A stretch of DNA of 44,996 nucleotides, taken from a virus. The stretch lies in UHGV virus genome UHGV-0278542, one strand, 5' to 3'. Below are positions 5,769 to 21,787 of the stretch, one piece after another (position 1 is the stretch's first letter; each line of letters begins with the position of its first letter). A model generated the notes under the pieces. It was not told where the DNA came from and did not search any database. It worked only from the letters and a program-made list of their open reading frames with translations. Both the position numbers and the translations under genes were made by a program.

Positions 5769-6580
5769 GTACTCGCCTTAACTATATTTTTTGCAATATC
5801 TGCCGCTTTTTTTGTTGCGCTGTTTGTGACTTCGAGTATTGGTTTGGATACCGTATCAAGAGCACTCTGGAATTCAGTCTTGATTGTGTCTGAAATTTTT
5901 CCAGTGATTCCGCCAACAGATGATTTCAGTGATGACCATGATTTACTTAGTTCATCGACAGTGGACTCCCTGGCTCCGCCGTTGGTTATTTGCGGATCAA
6001 CGCCTACCTCCCCCTGTGACTTGTTGTTATCCGTTGGCTTCTGTTCTGACTGAGAGCCAGAGAGGATAACCTCCATTTGCTGAATGACCTCCTGAAAATC
6101 AAGATAAACCGTCAGAAGAGTCACCCCTTTTTGAGAGTTAACTTCGTAATAGTGGTCAACAAGGTCGAAACTCTCCAGAGTTTCCTTTGGCGTTTCAATA
6201 TCGTATGTTTTTGCAGAGGACAGCATCGTTTTGATTGTGTTCAGCGTGCTGTTCTGGCTTGTGAATGTGAGATCGAAAATATTCGGGATATTGCCGGAAA
6301 AACCAGTAAGACCATTTACGATGATTGCGCATCTTACCCTGGCGGGTTCTTTAACTTTGTTGATGGACTGGTATTTCCCTTTCTCCACCGGAGCGTTTGT
6401 TATTTGCGCCCTGCCACTTGGCTGCACGGATGCCATACCACTGAACTCAAGAGCAACCTCGCCAGTTTCCCTGTCACGAATCACATACTGAGGATGCAGA
6501 ACGCTGTCGATGATCGAAAGCGGAGAGCCACCACCGATAGCATTGAATATGTCTGCTGTGTTTAAATCGATTATGCCCAT
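5765..6580 (-). CDS. Tail protein, hypothetical (Mu gp43-like position)
   Basis: 271-aa ORF, ATG at 6580; first gene after the ant cassette in the tail operon. Confidence 0.45.
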   Translation of the reverse strand: MGIIDLNTADIFNAIGGGSPLSIIDSVLHPQYVIRDRETGEVALEFSGMASVQPSGRAQITNAPVEKGKYQSINKVKEPARVRCAIIVNGLTGFSGNIPNIFDLTFTSQNSTLNTIKTMLSSAKTYDIETPKETLESFDLVDHYYEVNSQKGVTLLTVYLDFQEVIQQMEVILSGSQSEQKPTDNNKSQGEVGVDPQITNGGARESTVDELSKSWSSLKSSVGGITGKISDTIKTEFQSALDTVSKPILEVTNSATKKAADIAKNIVKAST

Positions 6581-6636
6581 CTACTCTCCATTAAACAAAA
6601 ACCCAGCCGAAGCTGGGTCGTTGCGTTGGTTATCTG

Positions 6637-7566
6637 TCAGTAGTTATGTACTGAAGGAGGTAATTCTTTATTCTTAAGTCTCATCCATGCGGAAAGATTC
6701 GTTGGTCCGTCTGGCTCATTGATATCAACATCTCGTGTGTGGTTTATTAAAACGTCTCTCGCCATTCCGATAACATACGAGAACTCATGACCGTAGTCGT
6801 AGCATCTGCCGGAATAGTTCGATTGAATTTGTTTTAGCGCCGGATACAGTTCGCGGAATAATGCCTGTGAGCGGTTGGCATAATCCCATAGCCATACAAG
6901 GCTGTTTGCTTCTTTTGCAGAAAGCTCGTTGGTTTTCTTCTCTTGTTTGCCGATGAACTCACCTTCAAGTGGAACTCGAGCTGCAAGTGACAGTGCTTCG
7001 GCAAACTGCTCCTCACTGATTTCTTTGTATGAACACCCAAAATGAGATTTCAGTGACGACCACATGGTGATCATCGCCTGCGCCTGTTTTTCTTTTGGCA
7101 GAGACTGACCGCGACTCATGACGAGTTGTTTAATAGCTTCCTGCTGTTCAGTGGTGATTTTACCCGGCAATGCCTTTTTAGCTTTGCGCGGGTTAACCAC
7201 ATGGCCTTTAGTCCAGTATTCGTATAGCACATCGTCACACTCTTCCTGATACTGGATTACCTTGTCGCGGATTTCAGGGCGGACTTTGTTAGGACTGATG
7301 GTTTGCAGCCAACCTGCAAGTTTGCGTAAAGCAAGACAGATAACCAAACGACGCTGAGTATCGCCGGGGAGCTGAATCATCATTTCGATGATGCAGGTCT
7401 TAAATCTCTCCATCAACTTGCGGTGTTGAGACTGCCAAGTCATACCCATTCCTTCAACGATAGGTTTCATTGGGGTATACGGTTCGCCGTTGTGATTGAC
7501 AACATAAAGCTCTGCGCCGTGGAATGGTACGTTGATAGTAGATACCGCTGTTGCTATACTTTTCAT
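6637..7566 (-). CDS. ant: Antirepressor Ant-like protein (AntA/KilAC-type N-terminal region)
   Basis: 309-aa ORF; N-terminal sequence [34 protein letters not shown] resembles phage antirepressor N-domains; preceded by an Arc-like gene and divergent from an Mnt-like gene, as in P22 immI. Confidence 0.65.
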
Positions 7567-7632
7567 GTCAGTTTTTCCTCAATACTTACTGGCGATTTAA
7601 GCCCTAGATACTCGCAATATCTGGGGCTTTAC

Positions 7633-7779
7633 TCATTCTGGACAAACAATCCCGTCCTTAGCTACCGACTCCTTAAGCCTCCTCAACACCTCATTGCTGA
7701 ATGACCGATCATCCTTTTTCGCTGACTGCTCCAAAGCTTTTTCGAGCCATTCTGGCATCCTTAACGTTTTTACTTTCAT
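7633..7779 (-). CDS. arc: Arc-like ribbon-helix-helix repressor (48 aa; below the ORF-track size cutoff)
   Basis: Hand-translated MKVKTLRMPEWLEKALEQSAKKDDRSFSNEVLRRLKESVAKDGIVCPE; AGGAG 6 nt upstream of ATG; directly upstream of ant. Confidence 0.5.
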   Translation of the reverse strand: MKVKTLRMPEWLEKALEQSAKKDDRSFSNEVLRRLKESVAKDGIVCPE

Positions 7780-7884
7780 TTTCGCTCCTTTGGTATGCGG
7801 TACGCATACATAGTATGTAGGTACGCATTGATAGTCAATAGATACCTACATATCCTGTGGTAAAAAATTATTCAGGATATGCTG
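7780..7884. promoter_or_regulatory. Divergent promoter/operator region between arc-ant and the mnt-like gene, with nested palindromes
   Basis: Inverted repeats atgtaggta...tacctacat and attga-tag-tcaat, plus a repeated gtacgcat element, in a 105-bp intergenic region. Confidence 0.5.
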
Positions 7885-8127
7885 ATGTCTGAACGCAGGT
7901 ACAAGAACCCACAAGTTAATCTTCGACTTCCTGTGGAGATAAAGGATCGCCTAACCGCGTTAGCTGAGGCGAATGGCAGATCTTTAAATGCAGAAATGGT
8001 TGCAGCTCTAAGTGCATGGGCAGGAGAAAATAAACATGTTCACTCGCTTAGCCTTTCTTCCTTAACCGAAAGATTAATAGCTCTTGAGAGAGAGGTTGCA
8101 GCCATTAAGGAAGCAAACATCAAGTAA
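7885..8127 (+). CDS. mnt: Mnt-like ribbon-helix-helix repressor
   Basis: ORF track 7879-8127; N-terminal NLRLPVEIKDRLTALAEANGRSLNAEMVAAL resembles P22 Mnt/Arc RHH motif; about 80 aa; divergent from arc-ant. Confidence 0.55.
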   Translation: MSERRYKNPQVNLRLPVEIKDRLTALAEANGRSLNAEMVAALSAWAGENKHVHSLSLSSLTERLIALEREVAAIKEANIK

Positions 8128-8150
8128 GAAGACGATATTACGAGGTTGCT

Positions 8151-8618
8151 ATGGCATGTCTTAGCAAGGAAGAAAATGAAATCATCAATGTAGAATTTAA
8201 AAAAACATCAGCAGATGAGTTGTTGATAATCAAGAAATTAATTATCGATGTTAAGAACCATAAAGGGCTATACCAAGATGTCGTAAAGCATGGTCGAAAC
8301 CTGTACAACTCAAAGAATAACATCATTCAAGAAACCGGACTTAGCGAAAAGATATCTGGTCGTCTTGCTATGATCCTTTGGTCTATCACTAATCCTGAGG
8401 TTGAGGCGGCACGCCGATTAAAGATTAAGATCACTGAGGCAACGTGGGTGTTTGAGGATTTCCTATGTAAACATCCCAGTCACCGCAATCTCAATGGCAA
8501 AAAGTACTCTATTCGTAAAGGAATCAGGATCGGCTTTTTCAAGCACATCCACCCAGGACAACTTGTAGGGTGTGGATGTTTATCTAGACCCATAATTCCA
8601 GGATTAAAAAACTCTTGA
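8151..8618 (+). CDS. Hypothetical protein with a MuF-like C-terminal motif
   Basis: 155-aa ORF, GAGG RBS; C-terminus HPSHRNLNGKKYSIRKG...HPGQLVGCGCLSRPIIPGLKNS parallels the C-terminus of the head-morphogenesis protein at 19513-20331 ([17 protein letters not shown]...[22 protein letters not shown]). Confidence 0.5.
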   Translation: MACLSKEENEIINVEFKKTSADELLIIKKLIIDVKNHKGLYQDVVKHGRNLYNSKNNIIQETGLSEKISGRLAMILWSITNPEVEAARRLKIKITEATWVFEDFLCKHPSHRNLNGKKYSIRKGIRIGFFKHIHPGQLVGCGCLSRPIIPGLKNS

Positions 8619-8627
8619 TAGTAGTAA

Positions 8628-8867
8628 TTAATTTCCATCAAGAGCAGCAAGCAGCGAAGTGCGCAACTCTTCTTGAGTCATTTTCAACTCTCCGCTCTTT
8701 GTTTGCCGGCGAAGATCATCGACCACCATTTTGGTGAATTCTGTAGGGGTAATCTCACTCTCGATAGAGACCTCTCTCCCGAGAAGCAATGCTATCCCAC
8801 CCAAAATTAGGCTAAAGGCATTACCAATATTTTTTAACGATGGAGTGTAAACGATGGAAAGTTTCAT
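8628..8867 (-). CDS. Hypothetical small protein (79 aa, one hydrophobic segment); alternative to the full 161-aa track ORF
   Basis: C-terminal part of track ORF 8628-9113 reads protein-like from the internal ATG at 8867; the N-terminal part looks like antisense of the + gene. Confidence 0.3.
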   Translation of the reverse strand: MKLSIVYTPSLKNIGNAFSLILGGIALLLGREVSIESEITPTEFTKMVVDDLRRQTKSGELKMTQEELRTSLLAALDGN

Positions 8868-9204
8868 TTTTACCGTCCGACAAGAAGATGTTGAATCATT
8901 GAACGAAGCAATGCAAACATGGGGGCTAGAACATAAGCCACATGTAACACTAGCATTCGACAGCTCGTCTCCACCAGAGTGGGTGCAAGTAATTGTTAAC
9001 GGAATAACAAGCCCTGCGGCAATGAATTGTTTATCTGCTGCAATTGGATATTTCGTCGCCAGAAACAAGGGGAAAAAGCTAGAGATACAAACTAACGACG
9101 GGAAAAGATTCATCGCTGAAGGGTTTAATCATCGTGAAATAAGCGCCTTACTGAGCGAATGTCAAGATCATATCGTTGTCAATAATGATGACAAGCCCAC
9201 CTGA
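8854..9204 (+). CDS. Hypothetical protein
   Basis: 116-aa ORF with GGAG 9 nt upstream of ATG; AT-rich cargo region. Confidence 0.4.
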   Translation: MESFIFTVRQEDVESLNEAMQTWGLEHKPHVTLAFDSSSPPEWVQVIVNGITSPAAMNCLSAAIGYFVARNKGKKLEIQTNDGKRFIAEGFNHREISALLSECQDHIVVNNDDKPT

Positions 9205-9270
9205 GTAGGCATTGCGTGTTTTTTCTTCATTTAATGGGTAGAATCATCAAAACAGCACAAGGATTATAAT

Positions 9271-9729
9271 ATGAAGAAATCATATATTCGTTATGCCATT
9301 CCTATTGTCTCCTCTTGGCTATTCTTAGCTTCGGCGTATGGAGAAGAAGGACTTATTCCACCAGATCATGTCACCAAGGAAGCTGAGATTGCTTGCATTG
9401 GGTTGGCTCAAAAATACGCTTCTGAATCAAGAAGATTTAACCCTGATGACATGAAAAAATTCGTCATGGAACAAGCGAATGATTGTCGAGTTTTTTTGTC
9501 ATACTCAATCTTCAAGCCCAATACTGCAAGCATAATTTTAGATAAGATTGAATCTGACTATGGTCGTTTTACTCCAGATGTATCCGAGGAAGAGGCCAAG
9601 TTCAGAGACTATTTTCACAAGAACATCATGTCAGGTGCACAAGAAGCAGCTAAAGATAAGGCTTTTAGAGATGAAATGGTAACACTTGGAGGTTTTGCCA
9701 TTGCTTCGCCATCCCATCGCAACTTTTAA
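9271..9729 (+). CDS. Hypothetical secreted protein (N-terminal signal-peptide-like segment)
   Basis: 152-aa ORF; N-terminus MKKSYIRYAIPIVSSWLFLASAYG; AAGGA RBS; convergent with the tape-measure gene. Confidence 0.5.
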   Translation: MKKSYIRYAIPIVSSWLFLASAYGEEGLIPPDHVTKEAEIACIGLAQKYASESRRFNPDDMKKFVMEQANDCRVFLSYSIFKPNTASIILDKIESDYGRFTPDVSEEEAKFRDYFHKNIMSGAQEAAKDKAFRDEMVTLGGFAIASPSHRNF

Positions 9730-11505
9730 CTATCTAACACCACTTGAAAATGCCTGATTTACTGATGATCTGCGATTCAACTCCTTAAATCCTTCGGTTA
9801 ATTTTGAGGATTGATCCGTTTTGGCAATTACCTTTACCTCTCCTATGTGCTGGCTGTTGTAATTGTTAACAACGCTTTGGGCATAGGATTGGTTTGCAGA
9901 TCCATTAGCCAATCTTTGCTGGGTTTGGTAGTACGCGGCATTGCTATTTTTCGTTGGGTTACCATAATCAAGACCCCGCCTCCAATTTGAATAACCTTCA
10001 TGTCGTGCCATGTAGGAACTTAATTTAGCCATAACAGACGGGTCTGAAAGGTCGAGTTTTTCATTTGCATCAACCCCCATTGCCTTAGAAACTTGCTTTA
10101 TGTATGAGGCGGTATCGTTTTCTGAAGGTGGAGCCCATTTCGTAATAATACCGTTTATAGTGTTAAGTTTATCTCTTGTGTAATACAGAGATAATTGCCT
10201 TCTTGCTGCTTCCCATCCTGACTCATCATCAGTGTACTTCGCAAACCCTCCAGAATCCCTACCGGCATTACCTTTAGTTCTAAGATTTAATGGGTTGAAG
10301 TTTCTATCCGCTCTTGTTTTCCCTGATGGATTTGTTGGTACATCCTGATTTGGATCTTCATATTCAATATTGAATAATCTTTCGAACCAGTGCTGCTGAA
10401 AAAACCAAGGCCTTTGTGCATCAGGAACATCTTTATACTGGTCTTGTACCATCTGCCCAAAAATACCAACAGCACCGATTAATCCCAGCTTGCTTCCTAA
10501 CCCCTTGCCGCTAAGAAGGGCCATGGCAGCAAGAATGCCCAATGCGTTTCCAGCGCCACCAACGGCTTTAACAAAACCATCAATACCTGTACTCAGGTTC
10601 CTGAAGAACCCAACAATGTCACCCTTGTTGTTTTTCAGCCACTCTAAAAACTCCTGTTCTGCTTTAAGCACTTCAGGGCCAAATGTAGCCATTAATTCTT
10701 GTTTAACCTGAGCAAATTGCGAGTCAAGGGCTTTAGTCGTAGCAAGAATATTACGCTGTGCTTCTTCCTGCTCTTTGGTCATCTGCCATCGTTTTTCTTC
10801 CTCAGATACCATCTGCACAGCTTTTCCGCTTTTAATATCCCCGGCAAGATTAGGGTCATAACCAAAAGCAGAAAGCACTTGCATTAACTGTTTCTCGTTA
10901 TGGTTCTTCCCATATTTCTGAAATTCCGCCAGAGCATCTTCAGATTTACCTCCAAGCTTACTAATATCAATGCCTGTTCTCGCTCCAGTTGTTAGTAAAT
11001 TCTGAGCCTCCGGTGTAAGTCCGCCGAAAATTGTTGGGTCTTCTATATTGGCAAGCGCCATCCTGGCGCTCATCTGAGCCCCAAGGAACGCGCCGCCGTT
11101 CTGACCAATTCGGGAGAATCCATACTGAGTACCAAGAACGTTACTGGCGCTTGTTCCAAGCATTCTCCCCATATTACTGGCTCTTACAATTGACTCCGAA
11201 GTACTTTCAAATGCACGGTGAATGCCAATTGCTACGGCAGTCAACACACCGCCAACAGCCACAAAGCGTGTCGAAAGCCCCAAAAAACCATTAAATGAAG
11301 CAGTCAACCCTTTCATTGCAACAGCAGCTTTGTCGGTCTCCTTAGCCGTTTTGGACATTGAGGAGGTTGTTGACCTTTCTATCGCAGATGAAGATCTCTC
11401 TATTTCGTTTTTAAGGTCTTGTGCTTCCTGCTTTACTTTCCGTTTTCCATTCAGGAATTCATCGGCCTTAATTGTGACCTTGTAGGCCAACTCATTGATA
11501 ATCAT
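9730..11505 (-). CDS. Tail tape-measure protein, putative
   Basis: 591-aa ORF after two small chaperone-like ORFs and downstream of sheath/tube genes; coiled-coil N-terminal half. Confidence 0.55.
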   Translation of the reverse strand: MIINELAYKVTIKADEFLNGKRKVKQEAQDLKNEIERSSSAIERSTTSSMSKTAKETDKAAVAMKGLTASFNGFLGLSTRFVAVGGVLTAVAIGIHRAFESTSESIVRASNMGRMLGTSASNVLGTQYGFSRIGQNGGAFLGAQMSARMALANIEDPTIFGGLTPEAQNLLTTGARTGIDISKLGGKSEDALAEFQKYGKNHNEKQLMQVLSAFGYDPNLAGDIKSGKAVQMVSEEEKRWQMTKEQEEAQRNILATTKALDSQFAQVKQELMATFGPEVLKAEQEFLEWLKNNKGDIVGFFRNLSTGIDGFVKAVGGAGNALGILAAMALLSGKGLGSKLGLIGAVGIFGQMVQDQYKDVPDAQRPWFFQQHWFERLFNIEYEDPNQDVPTNPSGKTRADRNFNPLNLRTKGNAGRDSGGFAKYTDDESGWEAARRQLSLYYTRDKLNTINGIITKWAPPSENDTASYIKQVSKAMGVDANEKLDLSDPSVMAKLSSYMARHEGYSNWRRGLDYGNPTKNSNAAYYQTQQRLANGSANQSYAQSVVNNYNSQHIGEVKVIAKTDQSSKLTEGFKELNRRSSVNQAFSSGVR

Positions 11506-19141: not shown

Positions 19142-19243
19142 TCAGCGACCGTTGTTTTTCTTCAATGCGGTTATTGTTAGAAGCGCTATAACCACGCCGC
19201 CAAATATCAATGTCAGGCCTAATGCCTTAAACACTTCAATCAT
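19142..19243 (-). CDS. Possible small membrane peptide (33 aa)
   Basis: ATG at 19243 with AGGA RBS; [33 protein letters not shown] is a single hydrophobic helix. Confidence 0.25.
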
Positions 19244-19505
19244 TTTTTTCCTGGTCTGTATTTTCTTCGCCCAGACGTTTAAGTCCTGCGTCATCAACGA
19301 AGAATCTTTCGCCAAGCTGTCCATCAACCATCCACATTCCGGGAATTGGCTTTCTTTCGAAAAAGCCAGCGTGGTCCATCCTGGTCTCTATCAACTCCCC
19401 ATTTTCAGCGATGACCACAATTTCAACATCGATGTCAGTGACATCTACCGAAACCACTTTATTAACGCCGTACTGGTAGTTAAATACGCGAGAATGATTA
19501 GCCAT
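19236..19505 (-). CDS. Hypothetical protein (89 aa) inserted between head-morphogenesis and scaffold genes
   Basis: ORF with ATG at 19505, same strand as the head operon. Confidence 0.4.
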   Translation of the reverse strand: MANHSRVFNYQYGVNKVVSVDVTDIDVEIVVIAENGELIETRMDHAGFFERKPIPGMWMVDGQLGERFFVDDAGLKRLGEENTDQEKND

Positions 19506-19512
19506 TTTTTAC

Positions 19513-20331
19513 CTATTTATTTTGTAGTCCGGGGATGATTGGTGACCACGTGCACCGACAGTTGATAGCCTCGCCGGGTAACACCCATTCACCATCGAGA
19601 TACAGCCCCTTATCGAGGTCGAACTCTTTTCCATCTGCTTTCACGTGGGATGGCCTTGGTTGCTTCCCGGCGTGTGAGTGTCGCCAGATGCCTTTGGTGA
19701 TGCCTAACTTCTTCTGCCGCTCAGACTGAATTACCGCTGTAGCTTTGTTGTTCTGGTCGCGTGCAATCGTCTCGGCGCGTCTGCGAGTAATGCCATATCG
19801 CTTAACCAGTTCATCAGTGAGATAGCCAAGGTCACGACCACGGCTGACAGACTGCATGACTATCGTCTCAACCTGTGTGTGATAGTGTTCAGGTATGGAT
19901 TTAATCAGGTTGACGTTCTCGTTAATGACAGCCTGCATCACGTTTTTAATCTCGTCATTCATCGTGAACTTAACGGTAAAGCCGCCAGCCTTCAGCGCAG
20001 AATGAAGAGAGACATCAGTATTGCGCAGCGTCTTATCGACGAAGCGATCTGCCAGTTTCTTGGCAAGCTCATTGAACTTGCTTTCCCACTGCTTTCCGAG
20101 CTTAGCCAGCCTGCGCTTTAACTCATCTGCCGGACTGGCATCCATCGCCATGCTGTCTTTGTATGCAGCCTCAAGCCAGTACCGGTAAGACTTATTCATC
20201 TCACTGACCAACTTGAGAAGCTCAGATCGATACCACTCATGAACTCCGGCGTTAGCTCTGACTGGACGAAGGGTTTTCCGGGTCTTCGAATCCTTCTTCG
20301 ATGGACTCGTTTTCGTACTCTTCTTCGTCAT
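19513..20331 (-). CDS. Head morphogenesis protein, MuF/SPP1 gp7-like
   Basis: 272-aa ORF immediately after the portal gene; C-terminal HxH...NCRC motif typical of MuF-family minor head proteins. Confidence 0.6.
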
Positions 20332-21787
20332 ATTCAGATTCCATCATGTGGTATGGGCTGGCCTTATCCGACTGGCGCATGCTTCTTATTGCATCAAGGT
20401 CGAACACGCCAGCTTCGGCATAGTTCTTATCAGCCTCAGACTGATGTTTCATGATCTCGGCTTTCTCTGCTTCTGTAAGCTCGTACAACGGCAGGAATTC
20501 AAAATCAATGTCAGGGTCAATCTCGCCAAATTCATTCAACTGGATAACATCCAGCACTGTTTTCAGCGGCACCCTGAACAGATTCTCCTGCATGGCGTGT
20601 ATTGAGTCATAGAAGACGCGGATTTCGCCATCAGATGAAGCGTTTAGCCCGTTAGGAGTGATACCAAGGAGCTTAACCAGAGGAATGCTTGATACCGATG
20701 CCATTTGTTCCTGAGCTTGCGCCTGAAGAGCATCAACTCCGGACAGACTTGTCACAAACTGGAAGAATTCTTCTCCATCCTTATCAATAAGGAACATTCC
20801 GCGATTGTCGCGAACCTTATTGAATAGCTCGGCACGCATAAACAGGTTTGGGTCTGCAATTCCAGACAAGGCATTCTGCATGTTCGTCTTCAGCCCATGG
20901 ACCACAAACGAATGAACCAGATCGCTAACGCTGTCACGTGTTCTCAACCAGTTCTGCACGTATGGCTCTGCCATCTGACTCAGCGACAAGCCGCCAAAGT
21001 TGTACGCCGCTTTGAGAATGTCTGGAACCTGGCGAGAAATCATTGTCAACATGCGACTGGCGTGAACCGTGCGCCCCATAACATACCATTCAGATGGATT
21101 GAAGAAGTCAGGGCTTAGAGGGTTATCAGCGTTATACACACCAGGGTATGTCCACATGGCCTCGATAACACGGAAACCATTCAGGCTTCCTTTGGTAATC
21201 TTGCGCGGGCTGATATAGAGCTTCTTATCCAGTTCGTCGGGAACCAGCCAGGCTGAGTTACCGCTTGGCGTCTTCACGTCGATATAAATCTGTCCGCGCC
21301 CGAAGTAACCGTCATGTTCCGCTGCCTCGCGAAACTTCTCTCGCACTCTGAAACGCTTTAATGCTTCGTCAAGCTGGCGAATTTTATCGGCCTTGTCGTC
21401 ACCATCGTCTTTACCTACATGCTTCAGCTCAATCCATTTTCGCGTCATCTCTTCTGCTATCGTGCCAGTAATCTTGCGATACTCCGGCAACTGAGCAAGT
21501 TGAGACAGATATGGGTAGCCAGGAAATCCACCGTAGCCATATGCGGTGATGTTTGCTGAGTTAAGGTAACTGTACGGCGTGGAGTCCATCGCCAGAGCTG
21601 ACTCCCCAATATGTTCAGGAATAACGCCTGGCGGGGGTACGTATCTCTCAATTCTACGCAATGCCTCGCCTTCATTTTTAATTCGCTCCTGTTCGTTAAT
21701 AATCGCAAGAACATTCGCCAGAGACATTGGCTGTTTCGCCTCTTCTTTCTGAGGCTCAGATTTTTTCTTTCTCAAAAAATTAAACAC
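20252..21787 (-). CDS. Portal protein, putative (start GTG at 21787 or ATG at 21727)
   Basis: 511-aa ORF immediately downstream of the large terminase. Confidence 0.6.

Follow-up and report, generated by a model that had tools for sequence, protein, structure and literature searches.

The DNA analysed here, a stretch of 44,996 nucleotides referred to as the window, is a lambdoid Escherichia coli prophage. Its late genes, which comprise antiterminator, lysis, terminase, portal, head MuF, capsid, E217-like contractile tail and baseplate genes, lie on the minus strand throughout. An island containing a P22-type immI region separates the tape-measure-like gene from the baseplate genes, and a stretch of this island (7600-9239) shares 99.5% identity with torT-proximal prophages of chicken isolates. 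Immediately downstream of the mnt-like gene of this island is an intact, ATG-started open reading frame on the plus strand, the product of which is a standalone MuF domain and is referred to below as mini-MuF. The features relevant to the locus are as follows.

6637..7566, minus strand: ant, encoding an antirepressor of 309 aa (P22_AR_N E=1e-45, P22_AR_C E=5e-30, PHROG 245 E=1e-95)
7567..7633, plus strand: sar-like antisense RNA between arc and ant (Rfam RF00262)
7633..7779, minus strand: gene for an arc-like repressor of 48 aa (Pfam Arc E=1.6e-5; RefSeq annotation)
7810..7856, no strand assigned: divergent, overlapping promoter-like sites with an operator-like inverted repeat (consensus scan, repeat search)
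7838-7810, minus strand: promoter-like site directed towards arc/ant (consensus match)
7828-7856, plus strand: promoter-like site directed towards mnt (consensus match)
7814-7831 / 7835-7852, no strand assigned: 18-nt inverted repeat, a putative operator from its sequence
7879..8127, plus strand: mnt-like gene for a ribbon-helix-helix repressor of 82 aa, the first gene of its unit (Pfam Arc PF03869 E=2e-10; RefSeq 'Arc family DNA-binding protein')
8142..8145, plus strand: Shine-Dalgarno-like GAGG, 5 nt 5′ of the mini-MuF ATG (read from the sequence)
8151..8618, plus strand: mini-MuF gene, intact ATG-started ORF for a standalone MuF domain of 155 aa
8262..8612, plus strand: MuF-homologous part of mini-MuF, codons 38-154, equivalent to head MuF residues 155-271 (hhalign, BLASTP, PHROG 324)
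9730-11505, minus strand: SLT/tape-measure-like late gene
19513..20331, minus strand: canonical head MuF of 272 aa, directly after the portal gene (PF04233 E=3e-15, above the gathering score; PHROG 324 E=4e-103)
20252..21787, minus strand: portal protein gene (Pfam Phage_portal_3 E=8e-92)

The order of ant, sar-like RNA, arc, divergent sites and mnt in the window is that of the annotated P22 record (Pant/Pmnt/Oarc/Omnt, sar), and the mnt region is ∼80% identical at the nucleotide level to that of CUS-3. The sar-like RNA matches the RF00262 model over its full length, with a score (28.7 bits, E=0.0078) that lies below the gathering score of 43. Promoter-like sites were called by a consensus scan, in which six were observed against 4.1 expected. 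The window carries a complete P22-type immI, in which mini-MuF is the second gene of the mnt unit and is antisense to late transcription. Only 23 nt separate the mnt stop codon from the mini-MuF start; the ORF on the other side (8628-8867) is convergent, and no intrinsic terminator was found 3′ of mini-MuF.

The mini-MuF protein is computed to be soluble and basic, with a pI of 9.7, a net charge of +11 and no transmembrane segments. Its gene lies in the tail-region island ∼11 kb from the portal gene and on the opposite strand to it, while the slot following the portal gene, the product of which is by analogy the expected partner bound by MuF-type proteins, is held by the 272-aa head MuF. Because it lies outside the packaging-module position, mini-MuF does not fit the context by which a head-morphogenesis MuF is defined; unlike a canonical head MuF, it has no portal gene alongside, is encoded on the opposite strand, is coupled to mnt and occurs in a phage that already has a canonical MuF.

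Mini-MuF and the resident head MuF are homologous. BLASTP aligns residues 45-154 of the former with residues 162-271 of the latter (E=2e-12, 26% identity over 111 residues), and hhalign of the mini-MuF family against a canonical-MuF profile, built from 41 canonical MuFs and the head MuF of the window, aligns residues 38-154 with residues 155-271 (99.6%, E=5.9e-25). The use of the canonical-family profile raised the coverage to 117 residues from the 69 that were reached in a single-sequence hhalign comparison. Some full-length MuFs of ∼270 aa align with the mini-MuF family profile from its position 13-16 onwards, and an HMM of the 41 canonical MuFs matches mini-MuF with 70 bits (E=1e-22). Among curated models, PHROG 324 ('head morphogenesis') matches mini-MuF solely over its last 46 residues (E=4e-9), PF04233 gives no match at E<=1 in a Pfam scan, and TIGR01641 gives none at E<=0.1 in an NCBIfam scan.

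An AlphaFold2 model of mini-MuF, built on 28 sequences, is confident over the whole chain (mean pLDDT 94, pTM 0.87) and predicts a single compact domain of five helices followed by a small β-sheet. The structural neighbours of this model in BFVD are almost all models of MuF, minor capsid or head-morphogenesis proteins (probability ∼1.0, 145-180 columns); no solved MuF structure was found for comparison. The prediction shows mini-MuF as a complete standalone MuF-fold domain, corresponding to the C-terminal half of head MuFs of ∼270 aa, and the part specific to its family amounts at most to the first ∼37 residues (two helices). Homologous domain, predicted fold, basic charge and the motif W...H...G...G...PG...C-x-C...IIPG are all common to mini-MuF and canonical MuF proteins (SPP1 gp7/Mu gpF; PF04233, TIGR01641, PHROG 324). 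The differences are that mini-MuF lacks the N-terminal ∼120-150 residues of the head MuFs, falls under the curated thresholds and has a Cys in place of the 'AGK-PR' stretch.

A preliminary description of the ORF, made from the sequence of the window, had placed it on the opposite strand within the tail-region island and beside an antirepressor cassette, and both points hold: the gene at 8151..8618 (+) is surrounded by minus-strand tail genes and adjoins Ant, Arc and Mnt, identified by Pfam and RefSeq. It had also aligned the C-terminus with that of the head protein at 19513-20331, which the BLASTP (E=2e-12) and hhalign (99.6%) comparisons bear out; the alternative that it had allowed for, a similarity too slight to be significant, is at odds with a pairwise alignment that is highly significant. 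The homology is not, as was thought, confined to the last ∼50 residues, since it extends over residues 45-154 by BLASTP and 38-154 by hhalign. The N-terminal part is indeed AT-rich (the 5′ third of the gene has the lowest G+C of its neighbourhood, 36% over 8050-8349, against 40-48% in the flanking DNA), but its supposed lack of relatives over ∼100 residues does not stand, as the alignment starts at residue 38. What was described as a detached MuF-like fragment with a novel N-terminus is accordingly a MuF-related protein in an unusual place, as stated, but one predicted to form a complete single domain (pLDDT 94).

The conserved residues of the protein include a candidate metal site, the components of which are as follows.

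8466..8579, plus strand: putative C-H-C-C metal site of mini-MuF (from conservation)
8466-8468, plus strand: Cys106, at least 90% conserved in the mini-MuF family and the wider short class
8481-8483, plus strand: His111, invariant in the mini-MuF family and the wider short class
8571-8573, plus strand: Cys141, invariant in the mini-MuF family and the wider short class
8577-8579, plus strand: Cys143, invariant in the mini-MuF family and the wider short class

Within the family of the window protein, C106, H108, H111, C141 and C143 are among the invariant residues. Alignment A3 shows no variation at H111, G116, G124, G136, C141 or C143, with P135 conserved to at least 90%, and the short class of standalone MuF-domain proteins (see below) shows none at H111, G116, G124, C141 or C143 and almost none at C106. 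This pattern suggests that C-H-C-C constitutes a structural metal site in which Cys106 takes the place of the His of the canonical 'W-x-H-S' stretch, and mini-MuF is probably zinc-binding.

Homologues of mini-MuF were found in 18 protein clusters sharing 51-99% identity, from E. coli, Salmonella, Edwardsiella and Klebsiella, the complete members of which are of near-constant length (151-170 aa). Further loci were detected in Rouxiella and in IMG/VR contigs, with identity down to 46% (L023), and a search with the family profile through 1.84 billion representative proteins returned 276 relatives at E<=1e-3. The gene is rare: five of the 5,426 complete genomes of E. coli have it, and it was not detected in 50,697 phage records, where the matches were canonical MuFs only (25-37% identity). 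Between genera, pN is 0.16-0.34 against a saturated pS of 0.77-0.83, alike in codons 1-44 and 45-155, and the substitution pattern thus indicates that mini-MuF is under purifying selection along its whole length. Mini-MuF belongs to the conserved accessory genes (moron type) of enterobacterial prophages whose contractile tails are E217-like. It is not the orphan of the preliminary description, given the 18 clusters, the Rouxiella locus and the 276 profile matches.

Linkage of the gene was assessed in eight distinct lineages, to which a scan of GTDB genomes contributed one locus. In every lineage (n=8) mini-MuF and the late genes are on opposite strands, and in seven of the eight mini-MuF falls within an E217-like tail module or at its border; no tail-gene matches were detected at the remaining locus, that of Rouxiella. 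In five of the eight lineages it directly follows a gene for a Mnt-like ribbon-helix-helix protein, with an arc/antirepressor pair across the divergent region. These mnt-linked lineages are listed here with their identity to the mini-MuF of the window where it applies.

The window type
The L019 allele (IMG/VR; described below)
L020 (59%)
L006/L021 (51%)
Rouxiella L016 (70%)

The mnt stop codon and the mini-MuF start codon overlap in L020 (TAATG) and in L006/L021 (ATGA). The linkage is kept at Mnt identities down to 37% and mini-MuF identities down to 51%, while the position of the mnt/mini-MuF block within the tail module varies among lineages. The three other lineages have no mnt: in Klebsiella mini-MuF is divergent from a KilA-N gene, in Edwardsiella it adjoins a gene for a BstA_C-domain protein, and in L023, which also lacks immI, it is a solitary reverse-strand insert amid baseplate genes. 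A conserved partner gene beside the mini-MuF family of the window was sought and none was found; the downstream genes differ by lineage.

The L019 prophage provides a second allele in an otherwise matching background. From arc up to and including codon 46 of mini-MuF, its DNA is ∼100% identical to that of the window; the two genes share 50-73% identity at codons 47-127 and 97% over the last 30 codons, and the DNA past the mini-MuF stop codon is unrelated. Because the identity falls only over codons 47-127 before recovering, the central helices and first β-strands of mini-MuF have been swapped between alleles within one prophage background. A mosaic central segment is as expected for a specificity-determining surface, of which it is not proof.

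The lengths of the relatives are bimodal among the 150 best of the 276 profile matches. In this set, ∼72 relatives are of 150-199 aa and end where the domain ends, most of them bearing the motif '...C...H..(N/D)G(K/R)...PG...C-x-C', and ∼48 are of 250-299 aa and are canonical head MuFs with 'HS-AGK-PR-SH ... C-x-C'. Separate HMMs were built for the short and the canonical class with the mini-MuF family of the window excluded from both. Against these models, both sets of which were drawn from the best matches to the mini-MuF family profile, mini-MuF scores 93 bits for the short class and 70 bits for the canonical class, and all of its relatives likewise score higher against the short class, whereas the head MuF scores 122 and 170 bits, respectively. 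Because of this better short-class score and the identity of only 26%, mini-MuF is not a recent copy of the resident head MuF, contrary to the earlier view of it as a duplicate of the resident motif.

Members of the short class match PF04233 with E-values of 4e-4 to 0.04, below the gathering score, and are also sub-threshold for TIGR01641. Their genes were found in the following contexts.

An ICE-like region that also encodes T4SS components, a primase, a zeta toxin and a giant methylase-helicase
An element with an integrase and a D5-primase
A region with an OLD-family ATPase/UvrD pair, Fic and MobC alongside
A region with an IS element alongside
A Comamonas plasmid, where an Abi-family gene and an integrase adjoin
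The edge of an element, where the gene overlaps an integrase gene
A contig with a small-terminase gene nearby
Another contig, with no portal gene

In none of these eight contexts, which represent proteins chosen by similarity to the mini-MuF family, was a portal gene found beside the short-class gene. The short class and mini-MuF are alike in being sub-threshold for Pfam and in occupying accessory regions of mobile elements; they differ in their N-terminal ∼40 residues, and the mini-MuF family, unlike the wider short class, is confined to enterobacterial prophage tail-module islands. The short-class proteins (∼130-200 aa; 'uncharacterized protein with gpF-like domain' at JGI) also share with mini-MuF their size, the Cys-bearing motif and an end of the protein at the end of the domain. 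E. coli and Klebsiella plasmid matches to a short-class protein, considered as further standalone cases, were rejected as canonical 232-aa head MuFs beside portal genes. No description of a standalone MuF outside head modules, or of a defence role for MuF, was found in the open-access literature.

MuF, one of the commonest phage head domains, is known solely from head-module proteins and as a carrier for toxins. The only MuF protein studied in depth, SPP1 gp7, binds the portal strongly, is taken up by the procapsid as one or two copies and has a supporting role when infection starts (PMC5576092, PMC6316719), and it is cited as binding DNA (Stiege et al. 2003, via PMC6316719). The MuF domain is seen as a module for capsid targeting (PMC11699363, PMC6316719), carries C-terminal toxins in temperate phages (PMC5576092) and serves as a hub domain in the polyvalent proteins that phages and conjugative elements encode (PMC5512222). 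Phages seldom have two muf genes, 614 such genes having been counted in 611 phages (PMC5576092). The slot behind mnt is a known variable lysogen cargo position: the annotated P22 record has mnt-orf59a-terminator followed by PsieA-sieA, and other small genes are found there in CUS-3 and in a P22-like E. coli prophage. SieA is a proven prophage-expressed exclusion protein (PMC10461980). Two further prophage proteins let the rival phage replicate but block its tail assembly in the case of Tab (PMC10884400) or its DNA packaging in the case of TerI (bioRxiv 10.1101/2025.02.27.640495).

In view of these precedents it is tentatively proposed, as a possibility still short of being probable, that mini-MuF is a lysogen-expressed, soluble, basic and probably zinc-binding mimic of a portal-associated head protein that interferes with rival phages. 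According to this proposal, mini-MuF would be co-transcribed with mnt from a Pmnt-type promoter, and would therefore be produced in lysogens, whereas in lytic growth convergent late transcription would damp it, a pattern likened to that of the orf59a/sieA cargo behind P22 mnt. The cytoplasmic protein would mimic a portal-associated, DNA-binding minor head protein and might occupy the portal, the procapsid or the DNA end of another phage dependent on a MuF-type protein, whether superinfecting or co-resident, so that head completion, packaging or progeny infectivity of the rival would be spoiled. Such a mode would be a Tab/TerI-like interference between phages, encoded by a prophage. The resident phage may be spared through the divergence of its own MuF/portal pair (26% identity) and a drop in mini-MuF expression after induction. 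The proposal draws on the homology and fold of mini-MuF, its near-constant length, its selection along the whole chain and its distance from the resident head MuF; on the linkage to mnt, the immI cargo slot and the strand opposite to the late genes; on the accessory and conflict contexts of the short class, never portal-adjacent in eight contexts; and on the mosaic allele, the portal and DNA binding of gp7 and the precedents of Tab and TerI.

The likeness to these systems is partial. P22 orf59a/sieA and mini-MuF are alike in lying downstream of mnt, antisense to late transcription and within the virion-gene region, yet their sequences are unrelated; P22 SieA is an inner-membrane block to DNA entry, whereas mini-MuF is predicted to be soluble and cytoplasmic, and the tail of the mini-MuF prophage is contractile and not P22-like. 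Tab (Pseudomonas aeruginosa JBD26) and TerI (Listeria phi10403S) are small prophage proteins encoded among structural or packaging genes, and the mode proposed for mini-MuF is like theirs; no resemblance to them in sequence or fold is expected of mini-MuF, and they have experimental support and cognate anti-proteins, of which mini-MuF has no evident counterpart. The MuF polymorphic toxins (Jamet et al. 2017; Apk2, Bxa, EFV) share with mini-MuF a MuF domain in a temperate phage, but in mini-MuF this domain is the whole protein, no immunity gene is adjacent and the gene is outside the packaging module.

Some observations count against a decoy role. No PADLOC defence family matches mini-MuF or seven of its relatives at E<=0.1. 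Mini-MuF is without the N-terminal ∼120-150 residues of the head MuFs, and has no evident partner for self-immunity. The gene occurs rarely, and the promoter calls are consensus matches; in the Klebsiella, Edwardsiella and L023 lineages, which have no upstream mnt, expression in the lysogen is suggested by strand orientation only.

Two other roles would retain the activity of a MuF domain, and each is regarded as unlikely. Mini-MuF may be a second virion-targeted MuF, packaged in the heads of its own phage beside or instead of the 272-aa MuF and co-injected to aid the start of infection or lysogeny in the next host. The phage does have a MuF-compatible portal, the domain is regarded as capsid-targeting (PMC11699363, PMC6316719), and mini-MuF is basic, as are the gp7-type DNA-binding proteins; against this, the gene runs antisense to the late operon and is tied to mnt instead of the head genes, the identity to the resident MuF is only 26%, and the family is nearer to standalone proteins on ICE, plasmid and integrative elements that have no portal gene nearby. 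Those same relatives on non-phage elements (ICE, plasmid) would fit a cytoplasmic activity independent of the portal, such as nucleic-acid binding or counter-defence that aids mobile elements generally, which is likewise thought unlikely. The basic charge and conserved C-H-C-C motif of mini-MuF, the place of MuF as a hub domain in polyvalent proteins (PMC5512222) and the DNA binding of gp7 as cited (Stiege et al. 2003, via PMC6316719) are also consistent with such an activity.

The coupling to mnt raises the further, rather improbable alternative that mini-MuF is an accessory regulator of the immI switch, working with Mnt or on Ant and Ant-like proteins and stabilizing lysogeny. The stop/start overlap with mnt in two lineages is in keeping with this, as is the antirepressor-type neighbour across the divergent region of each lineage (Ant, KilA-N, Bro-N/pRha, BstA_C). 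However, mini-MuF also occurs in the absence of immI (L023) and of mnt (Klebsiella, Edwardsiella), and the neighbours of its short-class relatives are unrelated; moreover, because ∼150 E. coli genomes have the arc/mnt module and only five of them have mini-MuF, immI works without it. That the gene is a non-functional remnant, either the recombination scar considered in the preliminary description or a decaying duplicate of the head MuF, is very improbable. The rarity of the gene, the lack of a Pfam match and one intact copy that was left unannotated in a RefSeq genome might be taken in its favour, but the frame is intact and its length near-constant across genera at identities down to 51% (clusters) and 46% (L023), pN is 0.16-0.34 against a pS of ∼0.8 with both halves of the gene under purifying selection, the predicted fold is confident and the key residues are invariant. 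Least credible, and almost to be dismissed, is a MuF-type polymorphic toxin or toxin carrier, a link that had been drawn because MuF domains of temperate phages carry C-terminal toxins (PMC5576092). Mini-MuF and its relatives end at the domain, the chain of mini-MuF stopping 12 residues past C-x-C with no C-terminal extension; the next gene is convergent, so that no co-directional small immunity ORF is present; the gene is outside the head module; and no toxin family matches mini-MuF in Pfam, NCBIfam and PADLOC scans. The idea that the MuF domain itself might be a BECR RNase was set aside, as the published work places BECR/PBECR C-terminal to MuF.

Extending the decoy role proposed for mini-MuF to the short class as a whole leads to a more doubtful suggestion, namely that standalone MuF proteins may form a widespread, unrecognized anti-phage family that acts through mimicry of the portal-associated minor head protein and would poison the procapsid, the packaging or the DNA delivery of a rival phage, with the swappable central segment setting specificity. 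If these proteins are portal mimics, structural-protein decoys would join the short list of assembly-targeting defences, and a soluble protein of 155 aa would offer a simple handle on what the MuF domain binds; if they are not, solo MuFs still mark a capsid-independent MuF activity. Mini-MuF indicates that a MuF domain can stand alone, outside the head module, under selection and tied to a lysogeny repressor, and solo MuF domains on conjugative elements, plasmids and integrative elements escape the curated models.

The gene for the mini-MuF, the 155-aa standalone MuF-domain protein encoded directly behind the mnt-like gene of the window (8151-8618, + strand), exists as a mosaic allele in another viral genome:

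8001-8468 of IMG/VR UViG_2703718829_000008: mini-MuF allele (locus L019)

The mosaicism is intragenic, as identity to the window is ∼100% in the flanks and codons 1-46, falls to 50-73% at the DNA level over codons 47-127 and returns to 97% over the last 30 codons, while past the stop codon the sequences are unrelated. The intact 155-aa ORF has no RefSeq annotation in NZ_CP035850.1 (6553-7020), and is labelled "hypothetical protein" by RefSeq in four other genomes.

The immI module of the window island, a P22-type unit of ant, arc, operators and mnt, also contains a sar-like sequence in the interval that separates the start of ant from the stop of arc:

7567-7633, + strand: match to sar antisense RNA

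This full-length match to the Rfam model RF00262 scores 28.7 bits (E=0.0078), which does not reach the gathering score of 43. It shares the position of sar in P22, and the module therefore looks complete, despite its setting in a contractile-tail prophage. Two further genes lie in the island and the tail module:

9271-9729, + strand: 152-aa ORF whose N-terminus (MKKSYIRYAIPIVSSWLFLASAYG...) resembles a signal peptide
9730-11505, - strand: gene for an SLT/tape-measure-like protein

The first, which has no match in Pfam or PHROG, is missing from RefSeq prophages that are ∼99% identical elsewhere and whose similarity stops near 9239; it looks like a further cargo gene of the island. The second encodes a protein that shares only 44% identity, over 356 aa, with its counterpart in prophages whose flanking sheath and baseplate genes are 99% identical to those of the window, suggesting a mosaic replacement inside the tail module.

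In Rouxiella sp. (L016, 1712-2143) a Mnt-like ribbon-helix-helix domain carries a fused C-terminal extension of ∼100 aa, giving a protein of 143 aa, and a gap of ∼190 nt separates this upstream gene from the mini-MuF gene. In Edwardsiella (L003/L004) the nearest called opposite-strand gene, ∼0.8 kb upstream of mini-MuF, encodes a BstA_C-domain protein (6286-7209). BstA is an abortive-infection defence protein of prophages, and the Edwardsiella island may therefore hold a defence gene.

According to Jamet et al., a small ORF behind a muf gene is a usual feature of toxin-immunity pairs. The canonical head MuF gene of the window shares this arrangement, although its product lacks the toxin extension:

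19236-19505, - strand: 89-aa ORF that directly follows the head MuF gene and matches nothing in Pfam or PHROG

A further gene lies behind each of those for two short-class proteins (P0173 and P0175), which belong to the standalone MuF-domain proteins of about 130-200 aa:

3542-4318 of L011 and 2718-3494 of L025: co-directional 258-aa genes, one after each short-class MuF gene

From their identical length and position alone we infer that the 258-aa genes are conserved, and each may form a two-gene module with its short-class MuF gene.
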